A stretch of 64,000 nt of DNA from Candidatus Poribacteria bacterium (GTDB lineage: Bacteria > Poribacteria > WGA-4E > PCPOR2b): the NCBI GenBank assembly GCA_965215015.1, contig OZ244042.1, positions 4,608,001 through 4,672,000 of the forward strand. Direction: 5' to 3'. This document shows, piece by piece, positions 42,261 to 48,676 of the stretch. The stretch's first letter is position 1. Every line of letters starts with the position of its first letter. The notes beneath the pieces were generated by a model, which did no database searches, was not told where the DNA came from, and was given only the letters and a program-made list of their open reading frames with translations. A program made the translations under genes and the position numbers.

Positions 42261-42560
42261 GTGCCAGATCGAGATACATTTCAAAAAATCGAACCGTTCA
42301 TCGTCCACCAAATTGCACAAAGTTTGTTTGGAGATCGGTATATCATTATTTACGATAATACGATTCAGTTTCACAGTCATTGCTATCATGTCAAGCGGAT
42401 TGAGGACACAACGCACCTATACACCGGATACTACTATCTCATGGACGCAAATACGCAATTGGCGATGCAGACTGATGAGGATTTCGCCGCGCCGGGAAGC
42501 TACGGGGCAATCTTCGATTCGGCCACAGGAGAAATTGTTGGTTATGATGGGGAGGGATAA
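42261..42560 (+). CDS. Hypothetical protein (99 aa)
   Basis: GTG start after GGAG; protein-like composition; no family recognised. Confidence 0.6.
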   Translation: MPDRDTFQKIEPFIVHQIAQSLFGDRYIIIYDNTIQFHSHCYHVKRIEDTTHLYTGYYYLMDANTQLAMQTDEDFAAPGSYGAIFDSATGEIVGYDGEG

Positions 42561-42606
42561 CACAGCAAGCTTGACTTCGTGAGTTTCGGCGAAGATCAAC
42601 TTTTAG

Positions 42607-42635
42607 CTGACAAATGCGGGCGCGTTTAATGTACT
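42607..42635 (+). promoter_or_regulatory. Degenerate copy of the tRNA-operon promoter (cassette 1)
   Basis: CTGACA-N17-TGTACT, homologous to 44720 and 46441. Confidence 0.6.
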
Positions 42636-42648
42636 TAAAGGTGCTCTC

Positions 42649-42683
42649 GCGGGAGTAGCTCAGCAGTGGAGCTCTACCTGGCC
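42649..42683 (+). pseudogene. 5' half of tRNA-Gly(GCC), copy 1
   Basis: GCGGGAGTAGCTCAGCAGTGGAGCTCTACCTGGCC; 31/35 identical to 46483-46517; ends at the anticodon. Confidence 0.85.
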
Positions 42684-42746
42684 GTGGGAATTAACTATTG
42701 CCTCTTTTAACCCTTATGTATGGCTTACTAGCACGGAGGAATCAAG

Positions 42747-43523
42747 ATGAAGGCTAAACTTTTTCAAAGATTGGTGCTCCTTCTTTTTTGCGTATCCTTA
42801 CCCTGCTTGATGGGAGCGTATCGTATTACGCCTACAGAGGGATTGAGTATCTCCTCTATGGTTAAACTCTCCAATCTGGTGTTTACCGGAGAAGTTGTCG
42901 AGATGGAATTTGTCTTTCGAGAGGATCTACCACCTCAGTTTACGACAGATATCACCGTTGAGGTCGAAGCGATGATTAAAGGAACACCCAATGCCGGAGA
43001 AAACCGCGTGAAATTCATGATCCGTGGCGGAGAGGGTGTCCATCCCACAACAGGAGAGTCGCTGATATGTATTGCAACAGGTGCACCGCAGTTTGAAATA
43101 GGGGAGAAGGTGCTTATCTTCTTGCTAAGACACACGCGTTTGATAGAACACAGGCGTTTAAGGCAGCTGTCACCGCCCCCCTATGAGGGGCTGGCACCGG
43201 TGTGGTGGGGAAACAGAAAGATAGTGGATGAAAAAGTATCTGTGCCCTATACGTTCCAGAAAAGATTATTTGAGAATGGGCAGTGGAGAGATAAAACTCA
43301 AATGAGGGATATTCATCTCCCAATTGATTTGGCACGGCAGATTGCTCAAGCGGCATTGCAAAATGCCGAAGCCGTTTCAACGGTAGAAGAGCAGATTAGG
43401 ACCTTTGCTAAAAATGCCCCGGTGGTGCCAGGTGAGAACCCCATGCCGGGTCAGGTGCTTCTAGACAGTGTTGAGGCAGCAATCACACCCATTCTCCCTC
43501 AGGAACGAATGGAGGAACAATAG
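42747..43523 (+). CDS. Secreted protein with TIMP/NTR-like OB-fold (cassette 1, gene A)
   Basis: Signal peptide; pattern S...MV..S.LVFTG.V...TDITV.V...IKG...GG...G.P.F..GE.V.IFL. Fold call is from pattern recognition. Confidence 0.65.
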   Translation: MKAKLFQRLVLLLFCVSLPCLMGAYRITPTEGLSISSMVKLSNLVFTGEVVEMEFVFREDLPPQFTTDITVEVEAMIKGTPNAGENRVKFMIRGGEGVHPTTGESLICIATGAPQFEIGEKVLIFLLRHTRLIEHRRLRQLSPPPYEGLAPVWWGNRKIVDEKVSVPYTFQKRLFENGQWRDKTQMRDIHLPIDLARQIAQAALQNAEAVSTVEEQIRTFAKNAPVVPGENPMPGQVLLDSVEAAITPILPQERMEEQ

Positions 43524-44354
43524 ATGTATCCGTTGCTGCGGCACAATGGTTCGGATGTTGAGTTTAATGACGAGACAGTGAAATTTCGTTTAATCAACGC
43601 TGGGGAAACACAACGCTCCCCAGGTCAAAAAGATGGTTGGAATGTTGTAGACTAGGGGATTATAGATCCATCACACCGGCTTGCAGAGGCCCATGTATGG
43701 TTCAGTCCCAATAATCCACTTCAAATCATTGAAGCCGACATAATATTTGACTACTATCAGCCATACGCGGCGCACAGTAATAATTTTCCCTCCGATAAGT
43801 ATTGTATTCGTAATGTTGCCACCCACGAATTTGGACATTGGGCGTTGTTATTAGATGTTTCTATAGGGGATTGCCCAAGCTATGCACCTTATACAATGTT
43901 TTCGCCGGGGGAACCTCAATTTAACATACACTCACAAGAGTCCCTTGAATGTGAAGACAAATATGGTCTTTGGTATACCTACAATGAAATGACCTTTTCT
44001 GCACCTCCTGTTCTGGCTAAACCTGAAGTTGTCAATCCTCCAACTACGACTAGCGTTGTAGAACAGACAAGGCTTTTTCAGAACTACCCAGACCCTTCTA
44101 ATCCGGAGACATGGATACCCTACGAGCTTTCAGAAGACGCTGATGTGACCGTTGAAATCTATGACTTAACAGGAGCTATGGTAAGGAAACTCGTCTTGGG
44201 GAGACAAACCAAAGGACGATATATCGACAAGAGGCGGGCCGCCTTTTGGGATGGAAGGAACGAAAGGGGCGAGTTAGTCTCATCAGGTGTTTATTTTTAC
44301 ACGCTTAAAGCAGATGAGTTTTCAGCAACACGCAGGCTAGCTCTTTTAAAATAG
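43524..44354 (+). pseudogene. Matrixin-like metzincin with C-terminal sorting (FlgD/T9SS-like) domain; 5'-deleted, internal TAG
   Basis: In frame from ATG 43524; TAG at 43653 (TGG in the paralogue); NVATHEFGHWALLLD at about 43812-43856; YTMF Met-turn; QNYPDPSNPETWIPY...WDGRNERGE.VSSGVYFYTL. Confidence 0.8.
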
Positions 44355-44391
44355 GGTGCTCCTTAAAACCTTTGCTTAAAATAATCAATAA

Positions 44392-44555
44392 TAGGACTTA
44401 CGCAATTGAACGCTCAATGCGTTATAGTTCGGCACTTCATCGCCGGTGCCCATACCCTCTGAGGCCCAATGAATCGGGCAACTACAACAAAGGTTCCATT
44501 AAGGAGCTCGTAGTGAACAACTATCGGTGTTCCCTACTGAAGTGCGTAAATCCTA
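44392..44555. mobile_element. MITE-like element with TAGGACTTACGCA/TGCGTAAATCCTA ends
   Basis: 12/13 inverted termini flanked by a CAATAA direct repeat; internal REP-like hairpins; duplicated at 46112-46275. Confidence 0.65.
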
Positions 44556-44719
44556 CAATAAATGGCAATTTCTTACGCCCCATTGAGCAACCCACTTGTC
44601 CTCGGCGGGGTTTTTCCATGTTAGTCGGTAGTTATATGCGTGTTCATCTTGAAAATTAATGACAATTCCCAAATCGGGCGAAGGATAAGGCGTGAATGAG
44701 CCATAAAATCGACTTTTAG

Positions 44720-44748
44720 TTGACAAATGCGGGCGTGTTTAATATACT
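44720..44748 (+). promoter_or_regulatory. Near-consensus copy of the tRNA promoter (cassette 2)
   Basis: TTGACA-N17-TATACT. Confidence 0.75.
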
Positions 44749-44761
44749 TAAAGGTGCTCTC

Positions 44762-44796
44762 GCGGGAGTAGCTCAGTCGCGGAGCTCTACCTTGCC
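44762..44796 (+). pseudogene. 5' half of tRNA-Gly(GCC), copy 2
   Basis: GCGGGAGTAGCTCAGTCGCGGAGCTCTACCTTGCC; 32/35 identical to the real tRNA; ends at the anticodon. Confidence 0.85.
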
Positions 44797-44859
44797 CTGG
44801 GAATTAACTATTGCCTCTTTTAACCCTTATGTATAGCTTACTAACACGGAAGAATTAAG

Positions 44860-45609
44860 ATGCAGACTAAACTTTTTCAAAGATTGGTGCTTCTTCTTTT
44901 TTGCGTATCCTTACCCTGCTGGGCATATCCTACTCTACCTACAGAGGGATTAAGCATATCTTCTATGATTGATATGTCGGTTCTGGCGTTTACCGGAGCA
45001 GTTGTCGAGATGGAATTTGTCTTTCGAGAGAATCTACCACCTCAGTTTACGACAGATATTACCATTGAGATCGAAGCGATGATTAAAGGGACACCCAATG
45101 CCGGAGAAAACCGCGTGAAATTCATGATTCCCGGTGGAGAGGGTGTCTATCCCACAACAGGGGAGTCGCTGATATGTGTTGTACCGGATGCACCGAAGTT
45201 TGGAATAGGGGACAAGGTGTTTATCTTCCTGAGAAAACACAAGCGTTTAGCTAGACTTCCAGTCCCTCATGGAGGACTGATAACGGGATGGTGGGGAAAA
45301 AGAGAGATAGTGGATGAAAAAGTATCTGTGCCCTATACGTTCCAGAAAAGATTATTTGAGAATGGGCAGTGGAGAGATAAAACTCAAATGAGGGATATTC
45401 ATCTCCCAATTGATTTGGCACGGCAGATTGCTCAAGCGGCATTGCAAAATGCCGAAGCCGTTTCAACGGTAGAAGAGCAGATTAGGACCTTTGCTAAAAA
45501 TGCCCCGGTGGTGCCAGGTGAGAACCCCATGCCGGGTCAGGTGCTTCTAGACAGTGTTGAGGCAGCAATCACACCCATTCTCCCTCAGGAACGAATGGAG
45601 GAACAATAA
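44860..45609 (+). CDS. Secreted TIMP/NTR-like protein (cassette 2, gene A paralogue)
   Basis: Clear paralogue of 42747-43523; the last ~100 codons appear identical. Confidence 0.7.
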   Translation: MQTKLFQRLVLLLFCVSLPCWAYPTLPTEGLSISSMIDMSVLAFTGAVVEMEFVFRENLPPQFTTDITIEIEAMIKGTPNAGENRVKFMIPGGEGVYPTTGESLICVVPDAPKFGIGDKVFIFLRKHKRLARLPVPHGGLITGWWGKREIVDEKVSVPYTFQKRLFENGQWRDKTQMRDIHLPIDLARQIAQAALQNAEAVSTVEEQIRTFAKNAPVVPGENPMPGQVLLDSVEAAITPILPQERMEEQ

Positions 45610-46074
45610 ATGTATAAAAAATCGCGGACTGGGCTTTCGTATCAGTCGTTTCCATTCTCGCCATATCCGGGAATGCCTTGGGAGAGATTCCATGTTCATT
45701 AGACTCGTGTGAGGATCTGTCTGAAGGAGGCCATCTAATATCCGGGAGGAGATGGAATCAACCCGGGACCCCTGAGAGAGTGAACTATTATGTCGGCGAG
45801 GAGTGGATTAACATGCCTGCCTTAGCTCCTGATGTATCCGTTGCTGCGGCACAATGGTCGGATGTTGAGTTTAATGACGAGACAGTGAAATTTCGTTTAA
45901 TCAACGCTGAGGAAACACAACGCTCCCCCGGTCAAAAAGATGGTTGGAATGTTGTAGACTGGGGGATTCCAGTTGATGACGAGTCTGTCGCAGAGGCCCA
46001 TGTATGGTTCCGTCCCAATAATCCACTTCAGGTCTGAGTTTTCAGCAACACGCAGGCTAGCTCTTTTAAAATAG
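45610..46074 (+). pseudogene. Matrixin-like gene copy 2: frameshifted signal peptide, catalytic and sorting domains deleted
   Basis: ATG TAT A6; adding one A gives MYKKIADWAFVSVVSILAISGNALG. After NNPLQ the sequence jumps to the last ~40 nt of the copy-1 gene. Confidence 0.75.
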
Positions 46075-46111
46075 GGTGCTCCTTAAAACCTTTGCTTAAA
46101 ATAATCAATAA

Positions 46112-46275
46112 TAGGACTTACGCAATTGAACGCTCAATGCCTTGTAGTTCGGCGATTCATCGCCGGCGCACACACCCTCTGATGACCGATGAATCGGGCA
46201 ACTACAACAAAGGTTCCATTAAGGAGCTCGTAGTGAACAACTATCGGTGCTCCCTACTAAAGTGCGTAAATCCTA
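46112..46275. mobile_element. Second copy of the 44392-44555 MITE-like element
   Basis: Part of the tandem duplication. Confidence 0.65.
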
Positions 46276-46440
46276 CAATAAATGGCAATTTCTTACGCCC
46301 CATTGAGTAACCCACTTGTCCTCGGCGAGGCTTTTCCATGTTAGTCGGTAGTTATATGCGCGTTCACCTTGAAAATTAACGACAATTCCCAAATCGGGTG
46401 AAGGATAAGGTGTGAATGAGCTACAAAATCAACTTTTTAG

Positions 46441-46469
46441 TTGACAAATGCCAGCGTGTTTGATACACT
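46441..46469 (+). promoter_or_regulatory. Promoter of the tRNA operon
   Basis: TTGACA-N17-TACACT. Confidence 0.75.
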
Positions 46470-46482
46470 TAAAGATGCTCTC

Positions 46483-46557
46483 GCGGGAGTAGCTCAGTGG
46501 TAGAGCTCTACCTTGCCAAGGTAGAGGTCGCGGGTTCAAGTCCCGTCTCCCGCTCCA
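46483..46557 (+). tRNA. tRNA-Gly(GCC)
   Basis: Full cloverleaf; CTACC-TTGCCAA-GGTAG anticodon arm; GGTTCAAGTCC; CCA encoded. Confidence 0.97.
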
Positions 46558-46561
46558 ATGT

Positions 46562-46633
46562 GGCGGCGTAGCCAAGTGGTAAGGCCGGAGTCTGCAAAAC
46601 TCCTATGCGTCGGTTCAATTCCGACCGCCGCCT
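46562..46633 (+). tRNA. tRNA-Cys(GCA)
   Basis: GGCGGCG/CGCCGCC acceptor stem; GGAGT-CTGCAAA-ACTCC; U discriminator; CCA not encoded. Confidence 0.95.
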
Positions 46634-46647
46634 TCATTCCTTAATAC

Positions 46648-46721
46648 GGGCGGTTAGCTCAGGTGGTTAGAGTGCTTGCTTGACATGCAAGAGGTCACTG
46701 GTTCAAATCCAGTATCGCCCA
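46648..46721 (+). tRNA. tRNA-Val(GAC)
   Basis: GGGCGGT/ATCGCCC acceptor stem; CTTGC-TTGACAT-GCAAG; GGTTCAAATCC. Confidence 0.95.
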
Positions 46722-46739
46722 TCTATGTTATTGAATACT

Positions 46740-46763
46740 AAAGAGCCGAAAGGCTCTTTTTTT
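46740..46763 (+). terminator. Rho-independent terminator of the tRNA operon
   Basis: AAAGAGCC-GAAA-GGCTCTTT then a T run. Confidence 0.85.
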
Positions 46764-46858: not shown

Positions 46859-48676
46859 ATGGAAAATTCAGAAAAGGATCTGCTTTATAAAATCAGGCAC
46901 AGCACCGCGCATGTGATGGCACAAGCGGTCGTGGAGCTTTATCCAGACGCTAAACTCGCTATTGGACCACCGATTGAAAACGGATTTTATTACGATTTTG
47001 ATCTCGGAAGCGATGGCGATGGCAAGCCGCTTGCATTTTCGCCGGAAGCCCTAGAGAAAATTGAGAAGCGGATGCGACAAATCGTCGCCGGCAAACATGC
47101 GTTTAATTATCGGGAAATCAGTCCTGATGAAGCACGCGAACTATTCAGAGATCAGCCCTATAAATTGGAGTTGATAGAGGGACTCATTGAGGGCAATGTC
47201 GATGAATATGGGGCTGCGATCGATGGAACACCGGTTGTGAGTACTTATCAGCAGGACACCTTTGAAGACCTCTGTCGAGGGCCTCACGTCGGAGACACAG
47301 GCGAGATACGCCCCGATGCCTTTAAGCTTTTGACTGTCGCCGGTGCATATTGGCGGGGCGATGAAAATAAAGCCATGCTTCAACGCATCTACGGCACGGC
47401 GTGGCACACCAAGGCAGAACTCAAGCAGCACCTTCAAATGCTTGAGGAGGCGAGAAAACGAGACCATCGCAAACTCGGCAGGGATTTAGAAATTTTTATC
47501 TTTGATGAGGACGTCGGGCCTGGGCTGCCCCTGTGGCTGCCAAACGGCGGCATCGTCATTGAGGAATTGGAAGCACTTGCCAAGGAGATGGAGGAGAAAA
47601 GAGGGTATGATCGGGTCAGAACACCTCACCTCGCCAAAGACGCACTCTTTCAGCGTACCGGTCACCTCGCGCATTATGCCGAAAGCATGTATCCACCGAT
47701 GGAGATGGAGGGCGTCCGTTACTACATGAAGCCGATGAACTGCCCATTCCATCACAAGATTTTTGATAGCAAACCGCGCAGCTATCGCGATCTGCCAGTT
47801 CGCTTGGGCGAATACGGCACATGCTATCGCTTTGAAAAGAGTGGTGAACTCTTCGGCCTCATGCGGGTGCGCTCCATGCAGATGAACGACGCACACATCT
47901 ACTGTTCGGAGGAGCAGTTTGAAGAGGAATTTATGGGGGTCGTTGACCTATACCTCGAATATTTCCGTATCTTTGGTATCGAAAAATATGTGATGCGTCT
48001 GAGTACACACCACAAAGCTGGACTTGGCAAAAAGTATATCGACAATGAACCGATGTGGCTCAAAACCGAAGAGATGGTCCGTAACGCGATGCGGAATGGT
48101 GATGTGCCTTTTGTCGAGGTACCTGATGAAGCCGCTTTCTACGGTCCCAAAATTGACGTGCAGATTTGGAGTGCCATCGGCAGGGAATTTAGCCTCGCCA
48201 CGAATCAGGTCGATTTTGCCGTACCGGCGCGATGTAATCTGAGCTTTGTCAATAGAGCAGGCGAGTCCGAAATCCCGATCTGCCTCCATCGAGCCCCACT
48301 CGGCACGCACGAGCGGATGATTGGCTTTCTGCTTGAGCATTATGCCGGCAAATTTCCCGTTTGGCTCTCACCGGAACATGCGCGCGTAATTCCAATCAAC
48401 GACAGCCACAACAACTACGTTCAGAAGATTGCTGAACGACTGAGAGAAGCCAAAATTCGTGCACAAGCAGATCTGGGGCCCGACCGTATGAATGCAAAAA
48501 TTCGTCAAGCCCAGTTGATGCAGGTGCCGTATATGCTTGTCGTTGGAGACAGAGAGGTTGAGGCTGGCACTGTTTCTCTCCGGAAGCGAGATGGAGCACG
48601 TCAAAATGGCTTGCCTGTGGAGGATTTTATAACCGCTGTCCAAGAGCGCATTGCAACACGATCGAACGAACTATAG
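46859..48676 (+). CDS. thrS: Threonyl-tRNA synthetase (lacks the N-terminal TGS domain)
   Basis: RHSTAHVMA, DLCRGPH, RDHRKLG, KPMNCP, AFYGPKID. Confidence 0.98.
   Translation: MENSEKDLLYKIRHSTAHVMAQAVVELYPDAKLAIGPPIENGFYYDFDLGSDGDGKPLAFSPEALEKIEKRMRQIVAGKHAFNYREISPDEARELFRDQPYKLELIEGLIEGNVDEYGAAIDGTPVVSTYQQDTFEDLCRGPHVGDTGEIRPDAFKLLTVAGAYWRGDENKAMLQRIYGTAWHTKAELKQHLQMLEEARKRDHRKLGRDLEIFIFDEDVGPGLPLWLPNGGIVIEELEALAKEMEEKRGYDRVRTPHLAKDALFQRTGHLAHYAESMYPPMEMEGVRYYMKPMNCPFHHKIFDSKPRSYRDLPVRLGEYGTCYRFEKSGELFGLMRVRSMQMNDAHIYCSEEQFEEEFMGVVDLYLEYFRIFGIEKYVMRLSTHHKAGLGKKYIDNEPMWLKTEEMVRNAMRNGDVPFVEVPDEAAFYGPKIDVQIWSAIGREFSLATNQVDFAVPARCNLSFVNRAGESEIPICLHRAPLGTHERMIGFLLEHYAGKFPVWLSPEHARVIPINDSHNNYVQKIAERLREAKIRAQADLGPDRMNAKIRQAQLMQVPYMLVVGDREVEAGTVSLRKRDGARQNGLPVEDFITAVQERIATRSNEL

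Follow-up and report, generated by a model that had tools for sequence, protein, structure and literature searches.

Promoter-bearing tRNA-Gly halves in a 3.8-kb insertion at the anticodon of a single-copy tRNA gene of Candidatus Poribacteria

tRNA genes are classic landing sites of mobile DNA; in almost every case described the 3' end of the gene is replaced, and the incoming DNA brings its own integrase. For integration into tRNA genes with the reversed polarity, the reference is reportedly Zhao and Williams 2002, J Bacteriol 184:859. Here a locus of this opposite polarity is described in a Candidatus Poribacteria bacterium. Two small cassettes without an integrase gene lie head to tail at the tRNA-Gly(GCC) gene, and each is preceded by a promoter and the 5' half of that tRNA. 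The window is the whole stretch of DNA that was analysed, 64,000 nt from assembly GCA_965215015.1 (contig OZ244042.1, positions 4,608,001 to 4,672,000, forward strand). The host genome is a single contig of 5.94 Mb, and positions are given in window numbering unless marked G000:C1. Genes, promoters, tRNA parts and hairpins in the locus are all on the forward strand; the repeats of transposon type are given without strand.

The closest described systems are summarised here from passages of the papers cited. In the Islander collection, 159 of 3919 islands are marked by a 5' fragment of the target gene and 3760 by a 3' fragment (PMC4383910), which bears out the statement in an earlier note on this DNA that 5' polarity is uncommon. 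Islander drops candidates that have no integrase open reading frame (ORF) or are shorter than 2 kb (PMC4383910); with these filters, units like the present ones would be rejected. A review describes 5'-distal recombination as considerably less frequent, citing Zhao and Williams 2002 (PMC6563490). Pelagiphages of the HTVC019P type integrate in the middle of a tRNA gene and supply a partial 5' end, according to sequencing and polymerase chain reaction (bioRxiv 10.1101/410191). Prochlorococcus islands contain arrays of elements parted by partial tRNAs, along with degenerate remnants (bioRxiv 10.1101/2020.12.28.424599). Cis-mobilisable elements (CIMEs) retain attL and attR without integration genes, and their tandem accretion is known (PMC6323972).

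A repeat search of the window finds an 83-nt direct repeat in three copies (42601-42683, 44714-44796 and 46435-46517), which are 90-92% identical and spaced by 2113 and 1721 nt. On alignment the repeat widens to about 92 nt (R1, 42592-42683; R2, 44705-44796; R3, 46426-46517). In every copy a -35/-10 pair of the sigma-70 type is followed by a short leader with TGCTCTC at its end and by nucleotides 1-35 of tRNA-Gly. These 5' halves (42649-42683, 44762-44796 and 46483-46517) end with the three bases of the GCC anticodon, which starts at tRNA position 33 (ARAGORN). Only the third copy runs on into an intact gene (46483-46557; Rfam, 73.4 bits). ARAGORN and Rfam call no tRNAs in the window other than this one, tRNA-Cys and tRNA-Val, so module copies 1 and 2 are half-genes; beyond the three tRNAs, Rfam gives just one sub-threshold match over the window. 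Past the anticodon, copies 1 and 2 have in common a 63-nt leader (42684-42746, with GGAGG before the ATG, and 44797-44859), followed by the start codon of gene A. The half-tRNA pattern occurs at exactly 3 sites in the 5.94-Mb genome and at 0 in a reversed control. A full tRNA-Gly with same-strand 5' fragments (nt 1-35) upstream is one part of the signature of an Islander island, and it is present here.

The order within each unit is leader, gene A, gene B, a miniature inverted-repeat transposable element (MITE), promoter, and tRNA nt 1-35. The register shifts between the units are 2113, 2107, 2086, 2308/2307 and 1720 in the repeat search. Unit 1 has lost 222 nt; unit 2 is short of 587 nt and of a further 27 nt in gene A. 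The restored length is about 2335 nt for both (2113+222; 1721+587+27). The earlier note had read these features from the letters. Its threefold module, of which only the last copy runs into a full tRNA, is recovered by repeat search, ARAGORN and Rfam alike. Its shared leader of about 63 nt before gene A, its periods of 2113 and 1721 and its restored units of about 2.33 kb are matched by sequence, alignment and register shifts, and the search for further half-copies that it proposed returned just the 3 sites.

The tRNA-Gly-Cys-Val locus was taken from 19 other species of the same genus and aligned to the window. In 17 of the 19, the alignment is unbroken from about 41091, through an OmpA-family gene and a conserved 99-aa gene (42261-42560, the last of the ancestral left flank), to 42683. 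In the same 17 relatives the locus then runs on with the tRNA 3' half, tRNA-Cys, tRNA-Val and thrS. In the window, the remaining ancestral operon is represented by tRNA-Cys, tRNA-Val and a terminator-like hairpin (46562-46759), with thrS next at 46859. Each of the 19 genomes has one 5' half. Since the site is empty in 17 of 19 relatives and the module is single-copy in all 19, the stretch 42684-46517 is extra DNA: it is a 3.8-kb insertion at the anticodon loop of a single-copy tRNA-Gly gene, and its position and polarity are observed directly. The ends of the element are direct repeats, so the exact insertion point within 92 nt cannot be told. In the host genome tRNA-Gly(GCC) is single-copy, the remaining tRNA-Gly genes being CCC and TCC; any insertion that survives must therefore rebuild the gene.

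Several halves at one locus are found only in this genome among 159 genomes of the order. One relative (G127) has two halves, but on two contigs, with one of them sitting at a contig end. An insertion at the anticodon and empty sites in related genomes had both been foreseen, and both are found; variation in cassette number and excised circles had been expected as well, and neither is seen in the genomes or contigs compared. Two relatives were tried as carriers of a variant cassette and rejected. One (G003) has only a different left flank. The other (G005) has an ordinary insertion sequence (IS) between the 99-aa gene and the tRNA-Gly promoter (L033 116-1503); its transposase is of the DDE type (394 aa), and it has inverted ends with a target duplication of CTCACTTTTT.

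The three repeat copies are not equally close to the modules of the relatives. The segment around the -10 hexamer (TTTGATACACTTAAA) is invariant in 18 of the 19 relatives and the tRNA-Gly 5' half in all 19. R3, which is joined to the tRNA, retains both, with a mean identity of 88.7% to the relatives' modules; the means for R1 and R2 are 75.2% and 78.4%. R1 and R2 have several derived states in common: TTTAAT[G/A]TACTT, an upstream T-run shorter by one T, GGTGCTCTC, and A-to-G where the D-loop ends. One and the same relative (G007) is nearest to each of the three copies, so that this comparison does not single out the copy that came with the element. The D-loop (42664-42668; 44777-44781, 5 nt) contains 3 of the 4 changes in the tRNA part of R1 and 3 of 3 in that of R2, and all stem bases are unchanged.

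A hexamer scan scores the R2 promoter, TTGACA-17-TATACT, at 11/12 and the R3 promoter, TTGACA-17-TACACT with TG, at 10/12. It does not list R1 (CTGACA-17-TGTACT), a decayed tRNA-operon promoter contiguous with the ancestral flank, in which the first T of the -35 hexamer is lost. A stable-RNA promoter ahead of gene A in each unit, as proposed in the earlier note, is thus supported; that of R2 passes the scan, as does that of R3, and that of R1 is weaker than had been assumed. Stretches of 123 nt taken from just 5' of each half-tRNA fold no better than shuffled sequences (z = +1.5 and +1.0).

The two units are colinear save for different deletions, and the same MITE is found at the same place in both (44389-44559 and 46109-46279; about 165 nt, terminal inverted repeats GGAyTTACGCA). 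This points to one ancestral unit that already bore the MITE. Its inverted repeat is the sole one inside the units, whose ends are the promoter and the tRNA half. A terminator-like hairpin in the first spacer (44595-44609) is a consensus match only. The MITE is present in dozens of copies in this genome and in every genome of the genus; a query containing it gave 42-307 first-look candidates per genus genome.

Gene A is intact in both units (A1, 42747-43523, 258 aa; A2, 44860-45609, 249 aa) and is a mosaic. Over residues 1-157, A1 and A2 are 74% identical, with dS of 0.15-0.41 and dN/dS of 0.39-0.56 in three codon windows to 145. In this part each has closer relatives outside the array: A1 is 89% identical to the metagenome protein P0002 and 87% to P0004, and A2 is 83% identical to P0008 and 80% to P0009. 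Over residues 158-258 the two are 98% identical to each other (dS 0.04, codons 145-258) and at most 75% identical to any other protein; in columns 43211-43510, 298 of 300 positions match between the units. Because the N-terminal parts have closer outside relatives, two allelic lineages of the cassette predate the partial homogenisation of the array. The mosaic fits two successive insertions, and it fits equally well an old duplication with later partial conversion. R1 and R2 resemble sister copies, and this speaks for exchange inside the array. The stepwise insertion of cassettes that the earlier note proposed is therefore not shown: the shared derived changes of R1 and R2, the MITE at the same place and the 98% identical C-terminal half of A point to common ancestry of the units, with gene conversion or unequal crossing-over. 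More than one insertion would agree with the two allelic lineages of A, and so would the old duplication.

When all 49 tRNA genes were searched against the genome, just one further partial copy was found, at tRNA-Leu(CAG) (G000:C1 5713162-5713247), outside the window. An 84-nt copy of the leader and 5' part of this gene, 88% identical, lies 1685 nt upstream at 5711438-5711521, and the whole locus spans G000:C1:5711438-5713247 (L046 3439-5248). The genes between the repeats encode a 317-aa membrane-anchored tetratricopeptide repeat (TPR) protein and a 142-aa TPR protein; the latter has paralogues elsewhere in the genome. The Leu 5' half is single-copy in 19 of 19 genomes of the same genus, and in at least 14 of them a single tRNA stands where the two flanks meet (with the expected overlap of about 82 nt); this second case in the genome is thus observed as well. 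Exact identity ends after the last anticodon base at both loci, at about nt 35-36 for Gly and nt 37 for Leu; at Leu, weaker similarity (5 of the next 7 bases) extends through the 3' side of the anticodon stem. At both loci the copy joined to the tRNA keeps the sequence of the relatives and the displaced copies are altered. No 3' fragment of any of the 49 tRNA genes lies within 25 kb of its gene. The tRNA genes total about 3.7 kb, or about 0.06% of the genome. Random breakage is not a reasonable source of two independent insertions in the anticodon arm of two tRNAs, which argues for a tRNA-directed, site-specific process.

Tandem paralogous genes for secreted proteins of about 290 aa lie just upstream of the tRNA-Leu locus (L046 24-3323; G000:C1:5708023-5711322). 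One of them, when scanned, matches Pfam Laminin_G_3 (concanavalin A-like lectin/glucanase superfamily), and relatives have more copies upstream. ARAGORN also calls a 'tRNA-Asn' at G000:C1:2313614-2314022 within an array of tandem repeats of 39-nt period; the call is probably spurious and due to a repeat family, and 20-35-nt pieces of the same 39-nt-period repeat occur at about 40 places in the genome.

We lean, with confidence a little better than even, towards site-specific integration into the tRNA gene with reversed polarity, by integrase-less cassettes or island remnants, followed by their arraying and partial homogenisation. Either a circular cassette or a larger island that has eroded since would have recombined at the anticodon loop under a tyrosine integrase acting in trans and later lost, and the product would be an integrase-less, CIME-like remnant between direct repeats. 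Each unit brings the tRNA 5' part with its promoter, the junction beside the 3' half restores a complete, promoter-equipped tRNA, and the displaced chromosomal promoter and 5' half come to face the cargo. The array may have arisen when a second allelic cassette entered the rebuilt tRNA, or by unequal crossing-over between the 92-nt repeats. Gene conversion would later have equalised the 3' halves of A, and deletions and a stop would have broken both B genes. Gene A would be transcribed from tRNA-type promoters with a 5' untranslated region of about 105 nt that opens with the tRNA half.

Several observations weigh against this integration. ORF and Pfam searches find no recombinase in the cassettes, in agreement with the earlier note, which had called them integrase-less. 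The search for a tyrosine integrase that it suggested gave 11 PF00589 matches in the genome, none within 66 kb of any tRNA, and the match nearest to the locus is about 420 kb away. No integrase is found upstream of tRNA-Gly in the 10 sister-family loci examined, of 148 matching genomes; the gene upstream in those 10 encodes a sigma-70 factor. Viral, metagenome and genome collections and the run contigs yielded no integrase-bearing cassette, no circle and no empty-site variant; the three collections gave no other copy of the cassette either. Among viral contigs, 194 pattern matches include no relative of A, and there are 0 matches to the tRNA-Gly 5' half. Among genome contigs, 94 pattern matches include no close relative of A, and there are 0 matches to a tRNA-Gly(GCC) 5' half whose next base is not A. 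The two target tRNAs have no obvious common sequence, so two recombinase specificities would be needed. At the Gly locus, the identity of the half-copies ends inside the 7-nt loop (TTGCC|CT and TGGCC|GT against TTGCC|AA), which means that a fully conserved overlap region is not seen. The Leu repeat begins just 3 nt inside the -10 hexamer; the rebuilt tRNA-Leu is thereby left without its ancestral -35, which is odd for an element that supplies 5' ends, and it may be expressed by read-through from the displaced promoter. The cargo families, finally, are multi-copy in the clade and not obviously foreign DNA.

Two candidates from these searches were rejected. The one junction hit among metagenome contigs (L094) lies inside a coding sequence unrelated to tRNA or gene A and is taken as a chance match. 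The nearest A homologue, in another genome (G014; 69% aa identity), stands alone in an unrelated context and is not the source locus: its homology starts 19 nt before the ATG, with no B and no tRNA.

A wider claim would be that promoter-bearing, recombinase-less cassettes, going into tRNA genes at their anticodon arm, form a distinct and widespread platform of gene capture that rebuilds these genes from the 5' side, and we regard this as improbable. If it were true, the cargo already in place would receive the old tRNA promoter with every new entry, a structure-specific enzyme or one acting in trans would be at work, and at the present locus the platform would hold a set of diverging protease-inhibitor ('immunity') genes under strong expression.

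The strongest rival, though an unlikely one, is template switching during replication, or another illegitimate duplication-insertion, with no recombinase at all. A nascent strand would leave the tRNA at the anticodon, copy an A-B segment that lies elsewhere and re-enter upstream of the promoter; selection would favour the whole tRNA and an A gene behind a strong promoter, and unit 2 would follow by unequal crossing-over. This agrees with the absence of a nearby recombinase, with a cargo of native multi-copy families and with the derived changes that R1 and R2 share as sister copies would. It would also suit the left ends of the repeats, which differ between the loci (about -50 at Gly and 3 nt inside the -10 at Leu). 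However, it leaves two independent events in 5.9 Mb that both fell in tRNA anticodon arms, out of about 3.7 kb of tRNA in total, when a random junction could lie anywhere downstream of the promoter at no cost. Nor does the genome or the family offer a source for leader and spacer; only the MITE and a weak partial-B match in another genus were found.

Homing triggered by a nuclease, which we consider a shade less probable than template switching, likewise needs no integrase: a break in the anticodon region of the empty tRNA allele would be repaired from the filled one, with promoter and 5' half as homology to one side and the 3' half to the other, and ordinary recombination would thereby copy the cassette from strain to strain. 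The cassette flanks are exactly the homologies that such repair requires, and other populations, whose A alleles are recombinant, have the same junction. Yet neither cassette has a nuclease gene, and the two tRNAs would call for two cleavage specificities or a structure-specific enzyme. Homing would moreover account for the spread of the junction and not for its first formation.

Promoter capture by plain tandem duplication, followed by homologous import across the promoter and tRNA sequence, is rather improbable. The donor would have had a native A-B pair upstream of its tRNA-Gly operon. Duplication of the stretch from leader to anticodon gives the same structure, the joint of spacer and promoter could be native in such a donor, and close A alleles (72-82% identity) exist in other assemblies. 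Against this, 0 of 159 genomes of the order have A-B beside tRNA-Gly, the nearest A homologue (G014) has no tRNA nearby, and the tRNA-Leu case needs the same accident in the same part of another tRNA.

Other assemblies and sequencing runs bear on whether the array is real. The protein P0015, found on a 1524-nt contig in another assembly, corresponds to an ORF that spans tRNA half, leader and gene A. Its alignment to the window starts at 42666 (VELYLAVG...), and its first residues, judged from their codons, would fit a canonical D-loop. Seven sequencing runs from 3 studies contain at least 0.7 of the sampled words, and one may be the source; no RNA run is among those listed as containing the sequence. 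Some listed runs with a small share of the words are labelled 'sponge metagenome', a hint at the habitat. Contigs of four runs (X1, X5, X7 and X8) were compared with the locus; these contigs are short, and rare variants are dropped from them. The junction of flank, R1 and leader is bridged in X7 (42355-42700) and X8 (42548-42698). X1 covers the unit-1-specific and the unit-2-specific parts with 0 differences, and it has depth in 30 of 30 bins of the stretch. Depth is absent at 43357-43507 in X5 and at 45471-46074 in X7. A contig of X5 joins 45305-45857 to 43551-43723 and, at 43654, carries G in place of the A of the window's TAG; some population therefore has a gene B free of the 5' deletion and of that stop. 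A joint from 44486 to 46139 (side 23) in X1 falls inside the MITE and probably reflects a further copy of it. No joint of one R copy to another, as an empty site or a circle would give, is listed among the run contigs, from which rare variants are dropped. No single contig spans the array, and the tandem order therefore rests on the assembly.

That two strain variants of one cassette were misjoined in tandem by the assembler is very improbable: the contig evidence is short and no listed contig spans 44344-44860, but the repeat copies and units differ at many positions and by deletions, R2 has a D-loop of its own, X1 has depth in every bin, and its unit-specific contigs stand at 5.5-7 against 7.5 and 10.5 for the flanks (weak evidence). 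An RNA-mediated origin, with a tRNA half joined to mRNA and copied into DNA, was raised since the Leu repeat starts at about the transcription start, and it is rejected as a general model because the Gly repeat holds the untranscribed -35/-10.

A and B are the only coding content of the cassettes by ORF list and Pfam. The secreted product of gene A has a signal peptide and matches no Pfam family. The family of A is multi-copy in the clade (with a match in 22 of the 41 genomes searched, this one included) and has 31 hits in a large protein database. The structure model has a predicted local distance difference test (pLDDT) score of 88.2 and a predicted template-modelling (pTM) score of 0.80. 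Its N-terminal domain matches the folds of agrin NtA (E = 5e-4; TM 0.44 on the target), the netrin-like (NTR) domain of PCOLCE, and TIMP-1 and TIMP-2 (tissue inhibitors of metalloproteinases; probability 0.96-0.98), with the match limited to this domain. The N-domain of A is thus predicted to be a TIMP/NTR-like module of the oligonucleotide/oligosaccharide-binding (OB) fold.

Gene B encodes a secreted, metzincin-like protease with a HEFGHxxxLxD motif, a conserved Met downstream and a C-terminal domain of the FlgD_ig type, like those of the type IX secretion system (T9SS). Some B homologues carry Pfam matrixin or M43 domains; one other protein (P0114), which bears the NCBI name 'Candidatus Poribacteria', has only the C-terminal sorting domain in common with B. 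While both copies of A are intact, both copies of B are broken, and in different ways. B1 (43524-44354) has lost 222 nt at its 5' end and has a 1-nt insertion and an in-frame TAG (43653-43655). B2 (45610-46037) keeps its 5' end; its frame shifts in an A6 run (45616-45621), and about 587 nt are gone, with them the HExxH motif and the C-terminal domain. An A7 run would hold the frame of B2, and the shift could be genuine slippage or else an assembly error in the homopolymer. One reading of this pattern is that orphan inhibitor genes may be retained while the protease genes decay.

An intact, overlapping A-B pair is found in a genome of another genus (G020). The model of its A-B complex scores 0.85, and the best of 3 controls scores 0.00; 116 of 157 solved complexes attain the mark set for this score, as do 2 of 215 mismatched pairs, counts that are rough with custom alignments. 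Runs of the model agree in at least 78% of contacts, and the pLDDT of the partner is at least 87. The modelled interface sets H180, E181, H184 and D190 of B against residues 24-29 of A, its predicted mature N-terminus. The model supports a predicted binding of A to B with the A N-terminus at the zinc site, which would make A a probable inhibitor of the metzincin B. Solved complexes of matrix metalloproteinases (MMPs) with TIMPs exist, so the binding model may have passed through its likeness to them. These observations on A and B concern 42747-43523 and 44860-45609 in the window, and L008 1501-2277 and 2258-3334.

In TIMPs a conserved N-terminal Cys chelates the zinc. No Cys is found among the invariant or near-invariant columns of the A alignment, where a Cys of this type was sought. 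A shares with the MMP-TIMP pairs (2e2d, 3ma2 and 2j0t are among the fold hits) the NTR/TIMP-like OB-fold N-domain, a gene next to that of a secreted HExxHxxxxxD protease, and a modelled N-terminus against zinc-site residues. It differs in having no sequence similarity to TIMPs, and in its extra beta domain and helical tail. Serralysin and its periplasmic inhibitor are another metzincin with a cognate inhibitor. The cargo is of interest for what appears to be a bacterial TIMP/NTR-like fold paired with a metzincin, with the inhibitor-like gene in two diverged copies and the proteases decaying.

In its smallest form, then, the opposite polarity is an enzyme-free cargo of about 2 kb that brings a promoter to save an essential tRNA. 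The by-product is a displaced stable-RNA promoter wired to the cargo. The second case in the same genome suggests that such mini-cassettes are under-counted; standard island finders remove them. If found, the responsible enzyme would mark out a simple natural system in which genes are stacked at one fixed and strongly expressed site.

Among known systems, integrative elements of reversed polarity resemble the locus most: the 5' part is supplied, the breakpoint lies in the anticodon arm, the intact gene is downstream and the fragment upstream, and there is an empty site. Here, in contrast, no integrase is found inside the element or close to it, the units measure just 1.7-2.1 kb, and the Gly repeat carries the whole promoter. 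CIMEs and tycheposon arrays share with it the att-like direct repeats, the lack of integration genes, the head-to-tail arrangement at one tRNA and the partial tRNAs in between. CIMEs are defined by descent from integrative and conjugative elements (ICEs) as well as by mobilisation in cis, whereas no ICE or helper is seen here. Tycheposon arrays have partial tRNAs at their att sites, and the passages cited mention no promoter-bearing 5' halves; the word 'promoter' occurs 0 times in the main text (bioRxiv 10.1101/2020.12.28.424599).

The earlier note had likened the array to an integron. An ordered stack of small cassettes at a fixed site, with promoters reading into the cargo, is indeed common to both. 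In none of the defining features does the analogy hold: an intI-type integrase, attI and attC are all missing, each unit has its own promoter whereas integrons have one platform promoter, and the anchor is an essential tRNA gene that needs rebuilding at every step. Tandem duplication is also known to set a promoter before a gene: in the E. coli long-term evolution experiment, an rnk-citT duplication reportedly captured a promoter. The likeness is that a tandem repeat places a strong-promoter copy before a gene; here, by contrast, the repeated DNA is an insertion absent in relatives, and the same arm of two tRNAs is affected. A limited literature search turned up no description of mini-cassettes of this polarity that lack an integrase, carry promoters and are stacked at a tRNA. 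Insertion at the anticodon with capture of tRNA promoters is supported, and the comparison that fits best is with elements that supply the 5' end, a polarity that is known but rare; what would be new at this locus is that the elements are integrase-less mini-cassettes in a tandem array.

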